Source: a virus (Duplodnaviria; Heunggongvirae; Uroviricota; Caudoviricetes). Taken from it: a DNA stretch of 16,821 nt. The stretch lies in IMG/VR virus record IMGVR_UViG_2671180758_000023. One strand, written 5' to 3'. The notes under the pieces are model-generated. The model worked only from the letters and a program-made list of their open reading frames with translations. It ran no database searches and was not told the DNA's origin. A program made the position numbers and the translations under genes. This document shows, one piece after another, positions 1 to 16,821 of the stretch (the first letter of the stretch is position 1; each line of letters starts with the position of its first letter).

Positions 1-1461
1 ATGAAAAAATTACTGCGTCTTTTTTTCCCGCTCTCACTGCGGGTACGTTTTCTGTTGGCAACGGCTGCGGTAGTACTGGTGCTTTCGCTTGCCTACGGAA
101 TGGTCGCGCTGATCGGTTATAGCGTCAGTTTCGATAAAACTACGTTTCGGCTGTTACGTGGCGAGAGCAATCTGTTCTATACCCTTGCGAAGTGGGAAAA
201 CAATAAGTTGCATGTCGAGTTACCCGAAAATATCGACAAGCAAAGCCCCACCATGACGCTAATTTATGATGAGAACGGGCAGCTTTTATGGGCGCAACGT
301 GACGTGCCCTGGCTGATGAAGATGATCCAGCCTGACTGGCTGAAATCGAATGGTTTTCATGAAATTGAAGCGGATGTTAACGATACCAGCCTCTTGCTGA
401 GTGGAGATCATTCGATACAGCAACAGTTGCAGGAAGTGCGGGAAGATGATGACGACGCGGAGATGACCCACTCGGTGGCAGTAAACGTCTACCCGGCAAC
501 ATCGCGGATGCCAAAATTAACCATTGTGGTGGTGGATACCATTCCGGTGGAGCTAAAAAGTTCCTATATGGTCTGGAGCTGGTTTATCTATGTGCTCTCA
601 GCCAATCTGCTGTTAGTGATCCCGCTGCTGTGGGTCGCCGCCTGGTGGAGTTTACGCCCCATCGAAGCCCTGGCAAAAGAAGTCCGCGAACTGGAAGAAC
701 ATAACCGCGAATTGCTCAATCCAGCCACAACGCGAGAACTGACCAGTCTGGTACGAAACCTGAACCGATTGTTAAAAAGTGAACGCGAACGTTACGACAA
801 ATACCGTACGACGCTCACCGACCTGACCCATAGTCTGAAAACGCCACTGGCGGTGCTGCAAAGTACGCTGCGTTCTCTGCGTAGTGAAAAGATGAGCGTC
901 AGTGATGCTGAGCCGGTAATGCTGGAGCAAATCAGCCGCATTTCACAGCAAATTGGCTACTACCTGCATCGTGCCAGTATGCGCGGCGGGACATTGCTCA
1001 GCCGCGAGCTGCATCCGGTCGCCCCACTGCTGGACAATCTCACCTCAGCGCTGAACAAAGTGTATCAACGCAAAGGGGTCAATATCTCTCTCGATATTTC
1101 GCCAGAGATCAGCTTTGTCGGTGAGCAGAACGATTTTGTCGAGGTGATGGGCAACGTGCTGGATAATGCCTGTAAATATTGCCTCGAGTTTGTCGAAATT
1201 TCTGCAAGGCAAACCGACGAGCATCTCTATATTGTGGTCGAGGATGATGGCCCCGGTATTCCATTAAGCAAGCGAGAGGTCATTTTCGACCGTGGTCAAC
1301 GGGTTGATACTTTACGCCCTGGGCAAGGTGTAGGGCTGGCGGTAGCCCGCGAAATCACCGAGCAATATGAGGGTAAAATCGTCGCCGGAGAGAGCATGCT
1401 GGGCGGTGCGCGGATGGAGGTGATTTTTGGTCGCCAGCATTCTGCGCCGAAAGATGAATAA
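1..1461 (+). CDS. phoQ: Sensor histidine kinase PhoQ (complete, 486 aa)
   Basis: Full-length ORF starting at window base 1. Two N-terminal TM segments, acidic periplasmic patch (EDDDDAEM), HAMP, H-box ([10 protein letters not shown]) and HATPase motifs ([16 protein letters not shown]). Matches E. coli PhoQ as I recall it. Stop TAA at 1459-1461. Confidence 0.95.
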
Positions 1462-1970
1462 ATATGTCCTTTTATCACCACAGCAAGGCAACCCATTGAT
1501 TTAATTAAACAACTCACACTGCAAAAAGTGCTAAAAACAGCAAATTGACTACACCATTAACTACACCGTTCGGTGCACTGTATGAAACAACGTGGAACAA
1601 ATAGACACAAGAAATATACAGGCGGGTAATCTTTCCAGGGGGATGCGCACCAATTCATGAGGGGCGTTAATGTCGATATGGGGATCCCCATAACGGGGCT
1701 ACCGGATTTTTTTCCGGTTAACTGTTAATCAGGCTGGTGGGTTTTACCTGTTCGGTAGGTGTTATGATTATCGTAATACTTTTCCCCCAATGGGGTAAAA
1801 GCATCAACCGTAACGGAAGTCGTTATGGTTGCCTTGATGATCTGCGTGGTCATTATGACCATTCAGTCAATGACCTTAATCAGAGCTTTTCGCTAAAAAT
1901 GACGTTGGCCACGTCATCCGGAAAGCACAAAATCCCATCGATTTTTAATTAACGGTTAAACCGTCTTTTT

Positions 1971-2010
1971 GTCACGTCGTGTCACTGGTTGTCACTCTCC
2001 GTCACGATCT
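1971..2010. repeat. Four direct GTCAC repeats at exact 10-bp phasing (gtcacgtcgt gtcactggtt gtcactctcc gtcacgatct)
   Basis: Read directly in the sequence. Preceded by a small hairpin plus T-run (acggttaaaccgtcttttt). Helical-phase spacing suggests a protein-binding array (arm-type or Xis/Cox-like sites); function unproven. Confidence 0.55.
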
Positions 2011-2033
2011 CCGATAGCCTGGCTGCAAATTAA

Positions 2034-2052
2034 ACTACGAAAATTTCGTAGT
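2034..2052. promoter_or_regulatory. 19-bp perfect palindrome actacgaaaatttcgtagt (operator or terminator-like hairpin) downstream of the PerC-like gene
   Basis: 9-1-9 perfect dyad read directly. About 45 nt 3' of the minus-strand ORF ending at 2098. Followed on the minus strand by a moderately U-rich tract (ttaatttgc). Confidence 0.35.
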
Positions 2053-2097
2053 TCTGGCTTCTTTCAGATAGTCGGTTGCCTGGTTACACGAAAAAAA

Positions 2098-2406
2098 TTA
2101 CTTCCTGCGTTTATCCCGCTTTGTATGTCCGTGCTGAATGCCCCGCAGTGGATCTTCTTTTTTCAGGTCGATCCCCATGTCCGTTAGTGTTTTTGTGGCG
2201 GCGGTTCTTATGGCACAAATCAGGTCTCTTTCCGGTTCCCGGGTTATGGTTGCCTTCCGGATACATGCCGTTCGTCGTTCCGTTACATACTGACGCGCTT
2301 CATCACTTGCCGCCTGTTTCAGTAACTCACCCCAGCGATTAGCCGCCCGTCGCCATAAGCCTTTCGCTTCCAGTTCTTCCGCTTTGTCATCATGCACCAT
2401 AAGCAT
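2098..2406 (-). CDS. PerC-family transcriptional activator-like protein (about 100 aa; start at 2406 or 2400)
   Basis: Motif MVHDDKAEELEAKGLWRRAANRWGELL and C-terminal MGID motif, as in PerC/Pch-family proteins. Paralogous to the ORF at 9833-10105. Weak RBS. Confidence 0.55.
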   Translation of the reverse strand: MLMVHDDKAEELEAKGLWRRAANRWGELLKQAASDEARQYVTERRTACIRKATITREPERDLICAIRTAATKTLTDMGIDLKKEDPLRGIQHGHTKRDKRRK

Positions 2407-2452
2407 AATCCCATTGATACCTGTTAAATCTGAATGGTTGGTTTCTGTTCTT

Positions 2453-2484
2453 TTGATAATTTTCCGTATAGCTTATTGTATGAC
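2453..2484 (+). promoter_or_regulatory. Candidate sigma70 promoter for the plus-strand cargo gene (TTGATA -35, about 17 bp spacer, weak -10)
   Basis: TTGATA at 2453-2458 followed about 17 bp later by TTGTAT/TATGAC, upstream of the AAGGAG RBS at 2501-2506. Pattern match only. Confidence 0.25.
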
Positions 2485-2514
2485 AGTACTGTCCCACAAT
2501 AAGGAGTTGCACGC

Positions 2515-2805
2515 ATGAGAATGACCAGACACAAAAAACAGATCCTTGAACTCTACAAACCTGAGTATCGCGATTGGGTGCGGGTGGAGGCTGGAGATCC
2601 ACCTTTTGATGTTCGTGGTGTTACAGTGCTGCTCTATGGTTCCGAATATCAGCGATATCACATAGAGGCAACACGAAGGACGCTAAACGCTATGGTTCGT
2701 GATAAGTTGCTGGAGCGTGTGAAAGTCCGTGAGCCACGTTTTGATGTGCGTATTGGTGGCGATGGTGCGCATTGCACGGTAATCCGCTATGGCCTGGTAA
2801 GGTAA
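2515..2805 (+). CDS. Hypothetical small protein (96 aa) with an internal tandem repeat; convergent cargo gene
   Basis: Strong RBS AAGGAG 8 nt before ATG 2515. Internal duplication PPFDVRGVTVLLYG / PRFDVRIGGDGAHCTVIRYG. Own hairpin plus T-run terminator downstream. Opposite strand to the rest of the element. No family recognised. Confidence 0.6.
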   Translation: MRMTRHKKQILELYKPEYRDWVRVEAGDPPFDVRGVTVLLYGSEYQRYHIEATRRTLNAMVRDKLLERVKVREPRFDVRIGGDGAHCTVIRYGLVR

Positions 2806-2835
2806 GCCATCGGGTAAATCAGATGATTAAATCAC

Positions 2836-2900
2836 CAGAATGTAAATTTACATTCTGCCAGCCACCAGCTACCCTCCTCAAAATTGAGGAGCCTTTTTAT
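2836..2900. terminator. Bidirectional terminator region between convergent genes: 22-bp palindrome cagaatgtaaatttacattctg and hairpin ctcctcaaaattgaggag followed by CTTTTTAT
   Basis: Two perfect dyads read directly. The second (2874-2891) is followed by a T-run on the plus strand. The first (2836-2857) is followed by a U-rich tract in the minus-strand direction. Confidence 0.55.
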
Positions 2901-2907
2901 CAACTGG

Positions 2908-3189
2908 TTACCGCCGTAACCGCTCCGGCTTCTTCCAGTGGTACGTGATTTTCTCCTTCTCCCGATACATCTCCACGCGGCGACGGTATGCCAGCAACTC
3001 AAGGACTCTGGTTCGTATATTGCGCATATCCGCATCGTTAAGTTCAATACCATCACGGCGCATCACCTCAGCAACAACACGCGCATAATTTTCGGCGGTC
3101 ACGCTGTCCGGCTGCGTGGCCTGTTCGTCATGCTGCTGGCTGATTCCAGAGACGCGGCGGATTAATCGCAGTATTTCGGCTTCTGTCAT
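2908..3189 (-). CDS. Hypothetical protein (93 aa) immediately downstream of the large terminase
   Basis: ATG at 3189 with GAGGT about 9 nt upstream. 13 nt after the TerL stop. Charged, helical-looking sequence. No family recognised. Confidence 0.5.
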   Translation of the reverse strand: MTEAEILRLIRRVSGISQQHDEQATQPDSVTAENYARVVAEVMRRDGIELNDADMRNIRTRVLELLAYRRRVEMYREKEKITYHWKKPERLRR

Positions 3190-3202
3190 GCTGCTGACCT
3201 CA

Positions 3203-4864
3203 TTACACCCCGCTAAATTCTTCCAGTTTCTGGCGGTGGCTGTCGCTTATATCAAAAGCAAAATCCTCATGCTCTGCCTGGAATGTACCAAACGCCATCA
3301 GCGCCGCTACGCTCGGGTCTATCTTGTTCGGTGATTTTTTCTTGTTCGGCTTGATATTGGCGTTCGCGTCACTCTGCATCACGACGTTACTCATCGACCA
3401 GGACAACACCGGATCGCCACGATGCACAATCACCCTGCGGTTAACAAAAACTTCGAACGATTTCGCCGCCGGACTGAATCTGAGGTAGGTTTGCGGGAAC
3501 GGCTCCACCTCAAAACCAGCCCCCTGTAATTGCGTCCTGAGATGCGTGGCGTTCCACGTATCAAAGCCCACCAGCCTGATATTAAATTTCTCCGCGTCCT
3601 GCATGATGTCATCTCTGATCCGGTCGTAATCAATGCAGTCACCTGGCGTTGTGCGTATCCAGCCCGCTTTAGCCCACTGGCGATAGACAGCGCGGTTTTT
3701 ATTGGCGGGGTTCTGTAGCTGGAACTCCGGCAGATAATGACGGGAAACCAGCATAATGGTTTTACCTACCGGAAAGGCATAGCACACGCTGGAAATATCG
3801 CTTGTGGATGATAAATCCAGCCCCGCGTAACACTCCTGGCCGTGTAAATCTTCCTCCGTGAACGTTCCGGCACACTCAGCCCATGCGCCGTTACCCATCC
3901 ACGGGGTAGTCCCCTGACACCAGATATTAAATCGCTTTGTCATCATCTCCACCCACTGCGACGGAATACCCCGCGCTTTCTGGATGGTTGAGGCCAGTTT
4001 TTCACGATCCACGGAAACATCGATGTTAGGGTTAGCCTTTATCCACATCGCCGGATCATCAACCTCGTTTTCGTCGTCCAGTTCGTAAATCAGTACAAAA
4101 ATTGAATCGTTGACCTCTTCGCCGTCCAGGATCTGGCAGCAATAATCATAGTGCTGCTTACAGGCTGAAACGACGTTACTGCCCGATGTAGTAATGGCAA
4201 ATAACAGCCCTTCGGGACGTGCGCCCATCCCCAGCTCAAGCGCGGAATAAACGCCGTTATCGGGGTGTAGGTGGTATTCGTCCACGATGGAAAGGCTTGG
4301 GTTTGTGCCCTCGATGGTTGCCGCTTTTGCTGCCAGCGGCTTTAACAGGCTGTTGCTTTTCGGGTGCATCACCTTGTGGGCCTGAATATTCACCCGCCTG
4401 CGTAACGGTCGGGATAAAAGGCACATCTGACGCGCATCATCAAAAACGATCCGCGCCTGGTCACGGCTCACCGCTGCGGTGTAAATATCCTGCTGCCCGT
4501 TCTCCATAATCAGAAACCAGTTAGCCAGAATCGCGGCGGTCGTGGATTTCGCATTTTTGCGTGGCACTTCGATAAAGGCGCTCGTGTATTTGCGCCGTCC
4601 GGTGGCCTTAACCTTAAAGCCGAGGATGCACGCAAAGGCGAACTGCTGCCACGGCTCCAGCTCAATGGGTCTGCCACGCATCGGCCCTTTTACGTGCGGA
4701 CACACCCTGGAAAAGGCAATAAACCGCTCCACAACCTCACGATCGAACGTGTAAAGGGGGCTTTCAAGGTCCGAAAAGTACCGTTTAACGGCCTGTTTCA
4801 GCCGTTTACAGGCCGGAATTTTGCCCGTTTTTACGTCTTCTGCGTACTTATTCCAGGCGGTCAA
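3203..4864 (-). CDS. Terminase large subunit (553 aa), probable TTG start overlapping the terS 3' end
   Basis: Typical TerL N-terminus (MTAWNKYAEDVKTGKIP...) and ATPase/nuclease-like length. First codon in frame is TTG (plus-strand CAA at 4862-4864) preceded by AGGA. Overlaps terS by 17 nt. Confidence 0.9.
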   Translation of the reverse strand: MTAWNKYAEDVKTGKIPACKRLKQAVKRYFSDLESPLYTFDREVVERFIAFSRVCPHVKGPMRGRPIELEPWQQFAFACILGFKVKATGRRKYTSAFIEVPRKNAKSTTAAILANWFLIMENGQQDIYTAAVSRDQARIVFDDARQMCLLSRPLRRRVNIQAHKVMHPKSNSLLKPLAAKAATIEGTNPSLSIVDEYHLHPDNGVYSALELGMGARPEGLLFAITTSGSNVVSACKQHYDYCCQILDGEEVNDSIFVLIYELDDENEVDDPAMWIKANPNIDVSVDREKLASTIQKARGIPSQWVEMMTKRFNIWCQGTTPWMGNGAWAECAGTFTEEDLHGQECYAGLDLSSTSDISSVCYAFPVGKTIMLVSRHYLPEFQLQNPANKNRAVYRQWAKAGWIRTTPGDCIDYDRIRDDIMQDAEKFNIRLVGFDTWNATHLRTQLQGAGFEVEPFPQTYLRFSPAAKSFEVFVNRRVIVHRGDPVLSWSMSNVVMQSDANANIKPNKKKSPNKIDPSVAALMAFGTFQAEHEDFAFDISDSHRQKLEEFSGV

Positions 4865-10985: not shown

Positions 10986-12377
10986 TCCTACATCATCACC
11001 GTCAATGTAGATCACGTCGTCTTTTTCCAGTTTGGCTAACCATCGTTTAAGGTGTTTTGTGTCATACCCCAGCTTTTTCATATCGTCACGTAACAGCGGG
11101 ATCGTGCACTTGTCGCCGTGCTGTGTGCGTGAACGTATGCATCCCCATAGCGCGGTATGGTTTTCCGTCTTGTTCCCTGCCTCCTCGATGCGCTCCAGTT
11201 CAACAGGAGGGCGCGGATCATCCACCACCACCAGCGACGTGATTAATTCACCGTCAGCGTCGGTAAAAAGCTCCACCACGCGTAAGTCATATGCGGCTTC
11301 TTTGAGTTCCTCCGCGTCCTTCATTTTGGTGCATGAGATAACCAGCGCTTCGCTTCCTGCGTCCTCCCTGCGTATCCGGTATTCAGCATCCAGCGAAGCA
11401 CGAAATGCACTGGAACCGCGCGCGCCTTTCGTCTCATCCTTGCCGGAATGGTGAACCACCAGCACCGTGGCCCCTGTGCGTCGTTTCAGTTCGTCACAAC
11501 CACGGATAAACGCCCCCATATCACGGGAATCATTTTCATCATTCCCACCAAAGCAACGCGCCAGCGTATCCAGAATAATCATGCGTACAGGTTTACCCGT
11601 TTCCCGCTCCACCTGACGGGCAGCGATAACCATTTCATCAACATCAAGCGGGGCAGCCGGAAAGATGGGGCGGTTTACCAGATACAGATTTTTCACCTGC
11701 TCATCGTGCACAACCTCCCAGGCTTTTACACGACGCGGAACACCTATACCGCCTTCACCAACCACATAGAGAACCGCACCATGTGCAACCCTGCGGCCTC
11801 CCCACTGGCGACCAGTGGCAACATGGCACGCCCACGATCCGGCAAGGAATGATTTATAGGACCCGCTAGCCCCGTATATGCTGCATAGCGATACCGCCGG
11901 AATAATCCCCTTAACCACGTAATCCAGTTGCGTGTCGTATCCGGTAGATCCAACGCTCATCGGTAGCGTGGTTTTTCGCTGGTGGTTTTTTTCTTCCGCC
12001 GGCTCTTTCCCGCGCACCCGTTCCAGGTATTCGCGCCAGTTCTCCCGCATATGGCTGTGCATCCCTTCGGGGTAATAATTCGCATCAGTTACACCCGCCG
12101 CCGCCAGCTTGTGCGCAATGGCATTAATATTTGATGGCCTGATGTGGCCTGCCTTGTACAGCCGGACACAATAGCGCCCCTCGTCGATGATTCTCAGGTC
12201 TGCCAGTTCATCCAGTTGATCATCAGCCAGCACAACGGGAGGCACATTATCGCCAGCCAGTCGCCCGTCCTGTTCCTGCCACTGTTTCGCATGTGCCCAG
12301 GCATCACTACCCGCAAAAATAATGACTTCGGTCATCTTGTCGTAAGGCTGTTTTTTTAAGTTCGGTGCGCTTTTCAT
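10977..12377 (-). CDS. Replication protein, RecA-fold ATPase (RepA/AAA_25-like helicase, pri-rep analogue), 466 aa
   Basis: Walker A-like YGASGSYKS, Walker B-like VRMIILDTLARCF, and VLVVHHSGKD motif typical of RepA-like helicase ATPases. Unassigned N-terminal domain and a C-terminal winged-helix-like tail. A canonical primase domain is not evident by eye. Confidence 0.8.
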   Translation of the reverse strand: MKSAPNLKKQPYDKMTEVIIFAGSDAWAHAKQWQEQDGRLAGDNVPPVVLADDQLDELADLRIIDEGRYCVRLYKAGHIRPSNINAIAHKLAAAGVTDANYYPEGMHSHMRENWREYLERVRGKEPAEEKNHQRKTTLPMSVGSTGYDTQLDYVVKGIIPAVSLCSIYGASGSYKSFLAGSWACHVATGRQWGGRRVAHGAVLYVVGEGGIGVPRRVKAWEVVHDEQVKNLYLVNRPIFPAAPLDVDEMVIAARQVERETGKPVRMIILDTLARCFGGNDENDSRDMGAFIRGCDELKRRTGATVLVVHHSGKDETKGARGSSAFRASLDAEYRIRREDAGSEALVISCTKMKDAEELKEAAYDLRVVELFTDADGELITSLVVVDDPRPPVELERIEEAGNKTENHTALWGCIRSRTQHGDKCTIPLLRDDMKKLGYDTKHLKRWLAKLEKDDVIYIDGDDVGPL

Positions 12378-12673
12378 TTCTTGCCCCTGAATCCGTTAAT
12401 CATGGTTTTCAGCTTCTGGATGTTTGCCCGTGCCCTGGCGTTGCTGGTGGGCACGTTATGCGGCGCGGTCTGTACCAGAGAAAAATCACGCCGGAACTGA
12501 TAAACAGGCATCACGCAATCATATTCGTAACCTTCACGGCGGTAAGTTACGCACCGTCCCGCCACGCCCTTAATCATTACCGTGCCGCCGTACTGGTCGC
12601 GGTAAATATCACCGCGCGTAAATTTAGGGTGAGTGTTGCCACTGGCAGTTAAGCCAGAATATTTAAGTTTCAT
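12374..12673 (-). CDS. Hypothetical protein (99 aa)
   Basis: ATG with GGAGA RBS. ATGA overlap with the replication gene start. No family recognised. Confidence 0.5.
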   Translation of the reverse strand: MKLKYSGLTASGNTHPKFTRGDIYRDQYGGTVMIKGVAGRCVTYRREGYEYDCVMPVYQFRRDFSLVQTAPHNVPTSNARARANIQKLKTMINGFRGKK

Positions 12674-15591: not shown

Positions 15592-16821
15592 TTATATTTC
15601 TCTGGCTATTGGCAATGTGGTTACGTTTTCATGTGTTCCCGCCAGTATCCCTAACCGCTCCGTCCACATATCCAGCGCGTCACGTTTCGCATCCAGATAA
15701 CGGGAATGGTTATAGACTCGTTGCATCCCTGGCATCTGATGACCTGTAAGCTGCTCCACGACGTGAGGATCCACGCCTAAATCGTTCAGCATCGTTGTAA
15801 AGGTGCGCCGGATGTCATGCAGTGACCAGTGAGGGTGTTTTAGCCTCCTGTGCGCTAATCTGCCGTACTGCGACACGCTTGTTTCCTGTTTCAATTCCCC
15901 CAGCAATAAGCCCGTGTGCCTGTTCTGCTCCACCAGCTGCGTGACGAACGGCAGTATTGCTTCCGGTATGGGCCGGAATATTGCCACCTTCGTTTTGCTG
16001 TGTTCTTTCGGCACGGTCCAGAGCATTTCGGTAAAATCCCACTCGCTGATCTCCGATAACCTCAGTTCTACCGTCCGGCATCCGAAAACAATCAGGAGGC
16101 GGATTAGTGCGACGTAGTAAGGGGAAAATATTTTTTTGTCCAGTGCCTGCAATAATTCGCCAAGTTCTTTGGTGCTTAAGACACGCTCGCTTATATCCGG
16201 TTTTTTCCCAACGTCCGCCACACTCATATCATCAAGAACGTTGCTGATTGCATAGCGCCGCCTCCGGCAGAACTTAAGCGCCTGTTTGCACGTCTGTAGC
16301 AAGAATCCGGCAGTAACAGGCGTTCGCTTTGCCACCTGGTCAAAACAGGCCAGCCAGTGCCGTAGCTCGCATTTATCCAGCGGCATAGCACCAATGTGCT
16401 GTATTACGTGATTATTAAGGCGCTTTTTCAGGGCGGCATAATCCACGCGGTTTTCCTTTACGTAAGACTCAAGCCAGTAGGTAAGCGCATCGCCAACCGT
16501 TACGGGCTTTAACGCTTTCTGTACGGTGTAATTCATCTCATGACGTGGATTTTTCCCCTCAGCAAGCCAAGCGCGACACTGTGCCGCTTTTTCCCTGGCA
16601 GCTTTCAGACTCAGATCAGGATAATTTCCCAGCTTAATCCGTTCCGGTCGTGCTCCCCTTCCCGTTCCGGCCCTGTAGGTGAAATACCAGGTTAAAAGGC
16701 CGCTGGTTGAATGCCTGACGCTCAGGTTTCCACCGTCATTAAGAAAAGCTGTTTTTTGGGCGGGTGTGCCGTTGATTTTCCTCAGCTGTGTATCGCTCAG
16801 TTTGTTAAGTGCTCTGCTCAT
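15592..16821 (-). CDS. Tyrosine integrase, P4-type (409 aa); start codon at the window edge
   Basis: N-terminal arm-binding-like domain (LSDTQLRKINGTPAQKTAFLNDGGNLSVRHSTSGLLTWYFTYR) and catalytic motifs (HDIRRTF, C-terminal Y in GMQRVYNHSRY). ATG at 16819-16821. Confidence 0.9.
   Translation of the reverse strand: MSRALNKLSDTQLRKINGTPAQKTAFLNDGGNLSVRHSTSGLLTWYFTYRAGTGRGARPERIKLGNYPDLSLKAAREKAAQCRAWLAEGKNPRHEMNYTVQKALKPVTVGDALTYWLESYVKENRVDYAALKKRLNNHVIQHIGAMPLDKCELRHWLACFDQVAKRTPVTAGFLLQTCKQALKFCRRRRYAISNVLDDMSVADVGKKPDISERVLSTKELGELLQALDKKIFSPYYVALIRLLIVFGCRTVELRLSEISEWDFTEMLWTVPKEHSKTKVAIFRPIPEAILPFVTQLVEQNRHTGLLLGELKQETSVSQYGRLAHRRLKHPHWSLHDIRRTFTTMLNDLGVDPHVVEQLTGHQMPGMQRVYNHSRYLDAKRDALDMWTERLGILAGTHENVTTLPIAREI

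Follow-up and report, generated by a model that had tools for sequence, protein, structure and literature searches.

A predicted winged helix-turn-helix protein encoded at the end of a phage-inducible chromosomal island, and the co-inherited palindrome that may be its operator

What is the function of a small gene that belongs to no recognised family, has its own terminator and runs against the operon beside it at the end of a mobile element? The question is raised by an open reading frame (ORF) of 96 codons, hereafter ORF96, in a 16,821-nt stretch of viral DNA (IMG/VR record IMGVR_UViG_2671180758_000023; this whole stretch is referred to below as the window). A sequence-only reading of the window had described ORF96 as an accessory cargo gene with a strong ribosome-binding site, an internal tandem repeat, its own promoter and a bidirectional terminator, and had left its function open. 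The answer that we favour, with slightly better than even confidence, is that ORF96 encodes an autoregulated winged-helix DNA-binding regulator, with a palindrome located just upstream of the gene as putative operator. The features concerned are the following:

2515-2805, plus strand: ORF96, 96-aa predicted winged helix-turn-helix protein of an unannotated family
2501-2506, plus strand: Shine-Dalgarno sequence AAGGAG, 8 nt before the ATG, sharing the last 3 nt of the palindrome
2472-2503, no strand assigned: 32-nt inverted repeat CTTATTGTATGACAGT/ACTGTCCCACAATAAG, with 16-nt arms that are 88% complementary and no spacer; putative ORF96 operator or 5′-leader hairpin
2407-2514, no strand assigned: divergent intergenic control region of 108 bp that separates the starts of perC (2406) and ORF96 (2515) and contains the palindrome and candidate promoter hexamers
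2098-2406, minus strand: PerC-family regulator gene (perC; Pfam PF06069, E = 4.6e-23, 81.7 bits), divergent from ORF96

Both the divergent perC gene and the palindrome had been overlooked in the sequence-only reading. As for ORF96 itself, sequence comparison indicates that it is a real gene under purifying selection, because the ratio of nonsynonymous to synonymous substitution rates (dN/dS) is 0.09-0.15 against relatives differing by 13-22% at the nucleotide level. The reading frame and its ribosome-binding site were exactly as first described, and the AAGGA sequence immediately following the palindrome is kept in most relatives. It was also confirmed that no family could be recognised: no Pfam family was matched at E ≤ 1, and nothing significant was found in PHROGs, NCBIfam or PADLOC (the best match in PADLOC-DB 2.0, HEC-01B, had an E-value of 0.027 and 12.3 bits), while sequence searches of the PDB with two family profiles gave nothing relevant.

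Structure prediction, which had been put forward as a check on function, gave a model of the winged-helix type. AlphaFold2 run with 12 close homologues returned an unusable model (predicted local distance difference test score, pLDDT, of 47); run with 31 diverse family sequences it returned a model with a pLDDT of 83 and a predicted template modelling score (pTM) of 0.72. In that model, helices at residues 5-12 and 16-26 are followed by a short strand (31-32), two further helices (33-41 and 47-62) and a hairpin formed by strands 66-75 and 85-94, that is, a topology of H1-H1′-b1-H2-H3-wing. This contains the complete layout of a winged helix-turn-helix (wHTH) domain: a three-helix bundle, helix 2 with recognition helix 3, and a two-strand beta-hairpin wing. 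ORF96 is thus, on the basis of the model, a minimal wHTH protein. Foldseek detected no match in the PDB at E < 1e-3, and in BFVD only an uncharacterised homologue of 115 aa. Sub-threshold Pfam matches of family members were to HVO_A0114 (two members, best E = 1.2e-4), MarR_2 (0.036) and TrmB (0.037), as well as to other winged-helix entries, namely PaaX, HTH_29, HTH_IclR, AbiEi_4 and HTH_20; the gathering threshold was not reached for any of the curated wHTH families MarR, ArsR/HTH_20, TrmB, IclR, PadR and HVO_A0114. The helix-3 motif E[SA]TRRTL is nearly invariant in the family, and ORF96 would be expected to bind DNA in a sequence-specific manner.

How widespread, then, is this protein? A word-index protein search returned only 17 clusters, all of them close, and a second round with a broad alignment added almost nothing. 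When 1.84 billion representatives were searched exhaustively with HMMER, 60 clusters came up at E ≤ 1e-3, among them at least three spurious repeat proteins and several truncated or frameshifted products. The spurious matches (P0019, P0042 and P0048; 591-1506 aa) carry 6-12 tandem copies of a unit of ~90 aa containing ERVTVREPDGDDAIGGD, a sequence that resembles the ERVKVREPRFDVRIGGDG/wing region of ORF96 by chance, and they were discarded. Genuine members are 95-130 aa long, with the consensus MRMTxRKKxIL...G.PPFDVxGVAYLL...ESTRRTLExMVxDGLLE...VxRYGLPG. In a survey of one genome per species, the family was found in Buttiauxella, Atlantibacter, Erwinia, Mixta, Enterobacter, Klebsiella, Shimwellia, Serratia, Pluralibacter, Kluyvera, Lonsdalea, Proteus, Tatumella, Yersinia and Moellerella; one further copy is on a contig of Pseudomonas lundensis. 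That copy (L086, 4001-4294), the sole member outside Enterobacterales, is preceded by the same palindrome and barely differs from those of the Yersinia type, which points to recent transfer or contamination. By sequence, this is a previously unannotated family restricted to mobile elements of Enterobacterales. Among 5,426 complete E. coli genomes, 409 (~7.5%) matched the 2407-2900 segment, which comprises ORF96, its control region and its terminators, and 45 covered at least 80% of it, 44 of these 45 being window-type copies (at least 80% identity).

Relatives are encoded at 26 IMG/VR loci, mostly on contigs of 5-15 kb with the gene ~0.3-2 kb from the contig end, and they usually converge on late or packaging genes. 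At three of the 26 loci the chromosomal fis gene adjoins, and the family gene is therefore the outermost gene of the element. Two unusual members were noted. One is a 200-aa protein (P0070) in which the family module is fused to a C-terminal MUG113/T5orf172 (GIY-YIG-like) domain; this domain is commonly attached to DNA-binding modules, and, judging by this fusion, the ORF96 module may be able to supply the DNA targeting of a nuclease-type protein. The other, on an 83-kb IMG/VR contig (L014, 5001-10294), immediately precedes, on the same strand, an ORF longer than 1,648 aa which, judging by a label read from its sequence, looks like a DarB-like methyltransferase-helicase.

The second element of the argument is the palindrome. 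Its 30-nt core (2473-2502), TTATTGTATGACA-GTAC-TGTCCCACAATAA, abuts the ribosome-binding site and ends 12 nt before the start codon. The same core precedes the family gene in 25 of the 26 IMG/VR contexts and at one further E. coli locus, as well as at 27 of 28 Enterobacterales genome loci. Wherever it is present (at least 15 genera) its length is constant, and the DNA farther upstream is unrelated; likewise, the distant blastn matches in ~330 E. coli genomes begin exactly at the left edge of the palindrome. An exact scan of IMG/VR with the core written in IUPAC code found 36 sites, 33 of which lie directly before a family ORF, the remaining three being located before a deletion scar (two sites) or a truncated copy (one site). 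Within the window there is no second copy of the palindrome, nor any half-site beyond chance expectation. Taken together, the comparison of loci indicates that gene and palindrome are strictly co-inherited, every palindrome found being accompanied by the gene or by what is left of it. Such remnants can be seen at two loci where the palindrome has been kept and the family gene deleted (L039 and L053, both at 716-745), the sequence switching right after ACAATAA, and at a third (L058) where the gene is cut off after MRMT downstream of a retained palindrome.

Is the palindrome read by a protein as DNA, or does it act as RNA? Comparison of 34 distinct cores showed hardly any variation in the outer heptamers TTAWTGT/ACAWTAA or in the inner GA/TC. 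Position 5/28 is paired in 22 cores and mismatched in 11, position 9/24 is A.C in 23, position 10/23 is T.C in 21, and position 13/20 is T:A in 21, C:G in three and G:C in one, the others being unpaired or wobble. The pattern indicates that the palindrome is conserved as a sequence more than as a pairing. On the RNA explanation, the palindrome would form a leader hairpin whose 3′ arm (ACAAUAAG) lies over the Shine-Dalgarno sequence and controls translation or the stability of the mRNA, with the winged-helix protein acting elsewhere or binding its own leader. The 3′ arm does overlap AAGGAG at a fixed position across relatives, and the minimum free energy structure of 2460-2530 is exactly the palindrome hairpin. 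Furthermore, the three paired states at position 13/20 (C:G, T:A and G:C) and the switch between T.C and G:C at 10/23 are what a hairpin could produce, and the unrelated upstream flanks, which have no consistent -35 element, suggest that promoters come from the context. However, the predicted hairpin is of ordinary stability (-13.9 kcal/mol against -10.65 ± 2.6 for shuffled sequences; z = -1.25, 17 of 200 shuffles being as good), the arms are conserved rather than drifting, with variable positions often unpaired, and Rfam gave no match in 1400-3300. Moreover, the candidate -10 hexamers TATTGT and TAKGAT are situated inside the left arm, which would keep that arm out of the transcript. We therefore regard an RNA element as an unlikely but live rival, and favour an operator because the sequence is conserved beyond pairing, the hairpin is ordinary and the -10 candidates fall in the left arm.

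For the favoured autoregulator we infer DNA binding, the operator assignment, autorepression and a role in trans as follows. The ORF96 protein would bind the 30-bp inverted repeat at 2473-2502, probably as a dimer, and binding would repress transcription of ORF96 itself, since the only candidate -10 elements overlap with the repeat, which also abuts the ribosome-binding site. In the clade to which the window belongs, the divergent perC would probably also be affected, because the control region of 108 bp is common to the two genes. Together with the palindrome, the ribosome-binding site and the terminator, the ORF would make up a self-contained and portable regulatory cassette, located at the integrase-distal end of phage-inducible chromosomal islands (PICIs). 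By analogy with RgdR and PerC/Pch, two other kinds of small regulator borne by such islands, ORF96 may in addition act in trans on host or helper-phage promoters. The function that the sequence-only reading had left open is in this way narrowed to that of a DNA-binding regulator by the predicted winged-helix fold together with the co-inherited palindrome, even though the protein still matches no family.

A number of observations weigh against such an autoregulator. No target in trans was found, and the modelled protein lacks the additional helices through which proteins of the MarR and ArsR types dimerise. Most relatives bear a C-terminal tail, LPGxCxVxRDxxGxDxAIxGE (acidic part RDxxGxDxAIxGE), that is missing from the window protein. 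In a phage-borne branch (Klebsiella phage ZX1 and IMG/VR locus L030) the gene has no palindrome and lies within an early operon, upstream of an anti-repressor gene, so that autoregulation is not universal in the ORF96 family. The states observed at position 13/20 fit base-pairing as well as they fit co-evolving half-sites. In the window's clade, a symmetric change of the palindrome from GATAG/CTATC to GACAG/CTGTC coincides with changes from ES to EA in helix 3 and from DVSG to DVRG at helix 2; the coincidence speaks for an operator, but this link between palindrome variant and helix residues represents essentially one phylogenetic event. The promoter is a further difficulty: no sigma-70 consensus site was detected in 1900-3300 by a consensus scan, the best -35/-10 pair has a suboptimal spacer of 15 nt, and transcription starting upstream of the palindrome would put the element in the leader, where it could act as RNA.

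The claim that ORF96 has a promoter of its own was not confirmed in the form in which it had been made: besides the negative consensus scan, a position weight matrix (PWM) search yielded one weak candidate in the window, and the best PWM sites fall at different positions from locus to locus, with no promoter consistent across contexts. An independent promoter for ORF96 is plausible from the sequence. Concerning the terminator, the part of the claim that survives is the plus-strand one. The signals are as follows:

2453-2479, plus strand: best candidate sigma-70 promoter, TTGATA (2453-2458), 15 nt, TATTGT (2474-2479); PWM score 9.6, weak
2836-2857, no strand assigned: perfect AT-rich 22-nt palindrome CAGAATGTAAA/TTTACATTCTG, a 9-bp stem in the RNA fold of 2800-2905
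2874-2898, plus strand: ORF96 intrinsic terminator from the terminator scan, CTCCTC-AAAATT-GAGGAG followed by CC TTTTT

The terminator has a stem (2874-2891) of seven pairs, four of them GC, and then CCTTTTTATC, with the T5 run at 2894-2898. The region 2800-2905 as a whole folds at -27.9 kcal/mol, compared with -16.3 ± 2.9 for shuffled sequences (z = -4.1, 0 of 200). The T-run is present on the plus strand only, and hence the terminator could not be called bidirectional. The AT-rich palindrome at 2836-2857 sits between ORF96 and the terminator and faces the converging minus-strand operon; it lacks a T-run of the kind that the terminator scan requires and was not flagged by that scan. It is possible that it forms a terminator stem for the converging operon, or that it is a binding site.

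What of the internal repeat, which had been the most distinctive feature of ORF96 at first sight? Its two copies are:

2577-2616, plus strand: copy 1, encoding VRVEAGDPPFDVR; end of helix 1′, strand 1 and start of helix 2
2712-2751, plus strand: copy 2, encoding ERVKVREPRFDVR; first wing strand; clade-specific

If the protein were built of two duplicated units of ~45 aa (PxFDVR...V-x-x-YG), the self-similarity would be readily explained, and that similarity is real: the 40-nt direct repeats are 73% identical and in frame, 135 nt (45 codons) apart, and the protein self-alignment of RVEAGDPPFDVR..GVTVLLYG with RVKVREPRFDVRIGGDGAHCTVIRYG scores 39, against 20.2 ± 3.8 for shuffled sequences (0 of 500). 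In the model, however, the copies fall on non-equivalent elements of a single winged-helix domain, copy 1 (residues 22-42) spanning strand 1 and helix 2 along with the last part of helix 1′, and copy 2 (67-93) the wing. Outside the window's clade, moreover, no relative has copy 2. Where the window reads REPRFDVRIGGD, those at 45-55% identity read YESRQIRRGGD, and only about four changes lead from the family sequence E-S-R-Q-I-R-R-G-G-D to the window's E-P-R-F-D-V-R-I-G-G-D. An origin by duplication of two units is therefore very improbable, and ORF96 does not qualify as a tandem-repeat protein, copy 2 being clade-specific and the copies structurally non-equivalent. Since the copies map to non-equivalent elements and relatives differ at copy 2, the repeat is, as judged from the model, a recent local feature of the window's clade and not a duplicated structural unit. 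The sequence-only reading was thus right about the similarity and wrong about what it represents.

The position of ORF96 in the island, finally, tells what kind of cargo it is. The features are:

1-1461, plus strand: 3′ part of phoQ, opening the window upstream of the island
2009-2906, no strand assigned: variable cassette of 898 bp (perC, intergenic control region, ORF96 and terminators), delimited by blastn against the O157:H7 island
2908-3189, minus strand: c1 (93 aa, phrog_1561; PHROG 1561, E = 1.5e-56), converging on ORF96
12374-12673, minus strand: RgdR homologue (DUF4222, 99 aa), with RGD at residues 20-22 and similar to ECs1581
15592-16821, minus strand: tyrosine integrase, at the end of the ~15-kb island

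The window matches the phoQ-roxA island of E. coli O157:H7 and other Shiga toxin-producing E. coli (STEC) at 96.6% identity over 90% of the window's length. The annotation of that island includes an integrase, a RepA-family helicase, a single-stranded DNA-binding protein (SSB), PerC, an HK97-type capsid and prohead protease, and also portal, connectors, HNH and the small and large terminase subunits. Judged by its gene content, the island in the window is a capsid-forming PICI of the OI-51/EcCIEDL933 type. It has an integrase, a replication module and its own HK97-type capsid, portal, protease and terminase, no tail or lysis genes, a size of ~15 kb and a dedicated att site, which is the set of features that defines such elements. 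The OI-51/CP-933C element goes by the name of EcCIEDL933 as a capsid-forming PICI. It has been treated as a PICI by Fillol-Salom et al. (PMC6092414) and carries RgdR (PMC3378721). The RgdR homologue at 12374-12673 therefore confirms the island as one of the OI-51/EcCIEDL933 type, already carrying host regulators.

What is left of the window without an alignment to the O157/STEC islands, ~10%, is the ORF96 region. Homology to the O157:H7 island (L001) covers 1402-2008 and 2907-3300, and 2009-2906 stands in for 59 bp. In EcCICFT073, at the same chromosomal site, c1 (93 aa) lies directly next to phoQ and there is no cassette. Conversely, the block perC-ORF96-c1 (2060-3190) was found again at 95% identity in the unrelated ETEC1738 island, and a clpS-adjacent PICI of O145:H28 has the same three-gene arrangement at its integrase-distal end. 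The counterpart of 2098-2406 in relatives is annotated as a PerC family transcriptional regulator. The gene c1, on which ORF96 converges as had been described, closes the late operon of EcCIEDL933-type islands and of EcCICFT073, with the packaging operon behind it. Both the O157 island and EcCICFT073 have c1 but no ORF96, and c1 stands beside ORF96-family members in ~12 of 26 contexts, being a frequent convergent partner. Thus ORF96 had rightly been taken for accessory cargo: the cassette, which ends in its own terminator, is missing from the closest relatives and present in unrelated islands, and the locus is indeed variable among related elements.

An accessory gene in such a position might instead be a helper-phage interference or defence factor that binds phage DNA or a phage protein, tilting the contest between phage and satellite, and does not regulate host genes. 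The PtiA and Stl-type proteins of Staphylococcus aureus pathogenicity islands (SaPIs) bind phage partners. ORF96 lies at the accessory end of a PICI, where interference and immunity genes cluster (PMC6092414), and its distribution is patchy. Elsewhere its relatives neighbour a putative Panacea/SocA-like pair and a putative, very large DarB-like methyltransferase-helicase (labels read from sequence), and the phage-borne relatives adjoin anti-repressor genes. Against this, the PADLOC match mentioned above is not significant, no partner gene in the same orientation is consistently found alongside, and no link to any phage component emerged. The putative operator motif, for its part, has no copy elsewhere in the window, nor in IMG/VR apart from the gene. 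An interference or defence role accordingly seems to us quite unlikely.

Two further observations concern the DNA immediately to the left of the cassette. Just before the junction, at 1970-2005, three TGTCAC hexamers and one CGTCAC follow each other with an exact period of 10 bp (tGTCACgtcg tGTCACtggt tGTCACtctc cGTCAC; 0 of 200 shuffles). This phased array is found as well in the O157 island, in the O145 PICI and, at other positions, in several IMG/VR PICI contigs. It resembles a protein-binding array, possibly one for packaging or replication recognition. Further left is an ORF of 62 codons (1764-1952, plus strand; ..FPQWGKSINRNGSRYGCLDDLRGHYDHS..), behind which a hairpin with a T-run (1952-1964) resembles a terminator. 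The peptide of this ORF is 76-86% conserved in the O157 island, where it is split across two frames, and the N-terminal extension of one ORF96 homologue (P0011) resembles it. This ORF was considered as a second cargo gene and rejected, as it has no PHROG match and does not keep an intact frame in the O157 relative; it is probably not a functional gene.

In practice, members of the family can now be given an annotation, that of a winged-helix protein for which a candidate operator has been defined. OI-51-type islands and E. coli PICIs already provide small regulators that alter type III secretion encoded by LEE, the locus of enterocyte effacement, and motility in enterohaemorrhagic and enteropathogenic E. 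coli (EHEC and EPEC), and ORF96, being mobile together with a PerC paralogue, is a plausible extra input into those LEE and motility circuits or into the contest between satellite and helper. A bolder version, which we hold to be doubtful, is that the gene and its 30-bp palindrome are a portable module of PICI accessory ends which constitutes a third class of satellite regulator beside RgdR and PerC/Pch and acts in trans. If so, ORF96 might reprogramme host virulence and motility genes or helper-phage late genes, and in the window's clade it would be coupled to the PerC paralogue via a shared operator. Although the family is new, proteins of this kind are very common, and no new mechanism is suggested by it; its interest is modest and would rise if ORF96 were to control host virulence or helper-phage genes.

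How does ORF96 compare with known systems? In fold, as predicted, and in the arrangement of gene plus palindrome it is like ordinary small wHTH autoregulators. Sequence identity to the wHTH domains of ArsR/SmtB, MarR and Fur is only 6-22%, and in contrast to these types ORF96 lacks metal or ligand site motifs and has an unusually long wing (66-94) and a split first helix (5-12 and 16-26). MarR proteins are ~140 aa long and dimerise through an interface of N- and C-terminal helices, whereas ORF96, with 96 aa, ends two residues past the second wing strand; by size and by its lack of dimerisation helices it falls outside the MarR family. RgdR (ECs1581, DUF4222) and PerC/Pch resemble ORF96 in being regulators of ~100 aa borne by islands of this class. 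RgdR acts as an activator of LEE1 and a repressor of motility (PMC3378721), and PerC-like proteins are common PICI cargo, some of them activating LEE1, some having no effect and one, EcCIMP1_025, repressing it (PMC6092414, PMC11773190). ORF96 is neither of the two: BLASTP against the window's RgdR homologue, which is the separate gene at 12374-12673, gave an E-value of 0.55, and ORF96 has no PF06069 match, the PerC being its neighbour at 2098-2406. It differs from both in that it is unrelated in sequence, has another predicted fold and comes with its own conserved palindrome. With phage morons, ORF96 shares optional presence (the cassette is missing in O157 islands and EcCICFT073), movement between unrelated elements (the module recurs in unrelated islands), an orientation opposite to the flanking operon and a terminator of its own, the candidate promoter being the weak PWM site TTGATA-15-TATTGT. 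Unlike a moron, however, the ORF96 family is widespread and occupies a conserved position at PICI ends, rather than being a sporadic, one-off insertion.

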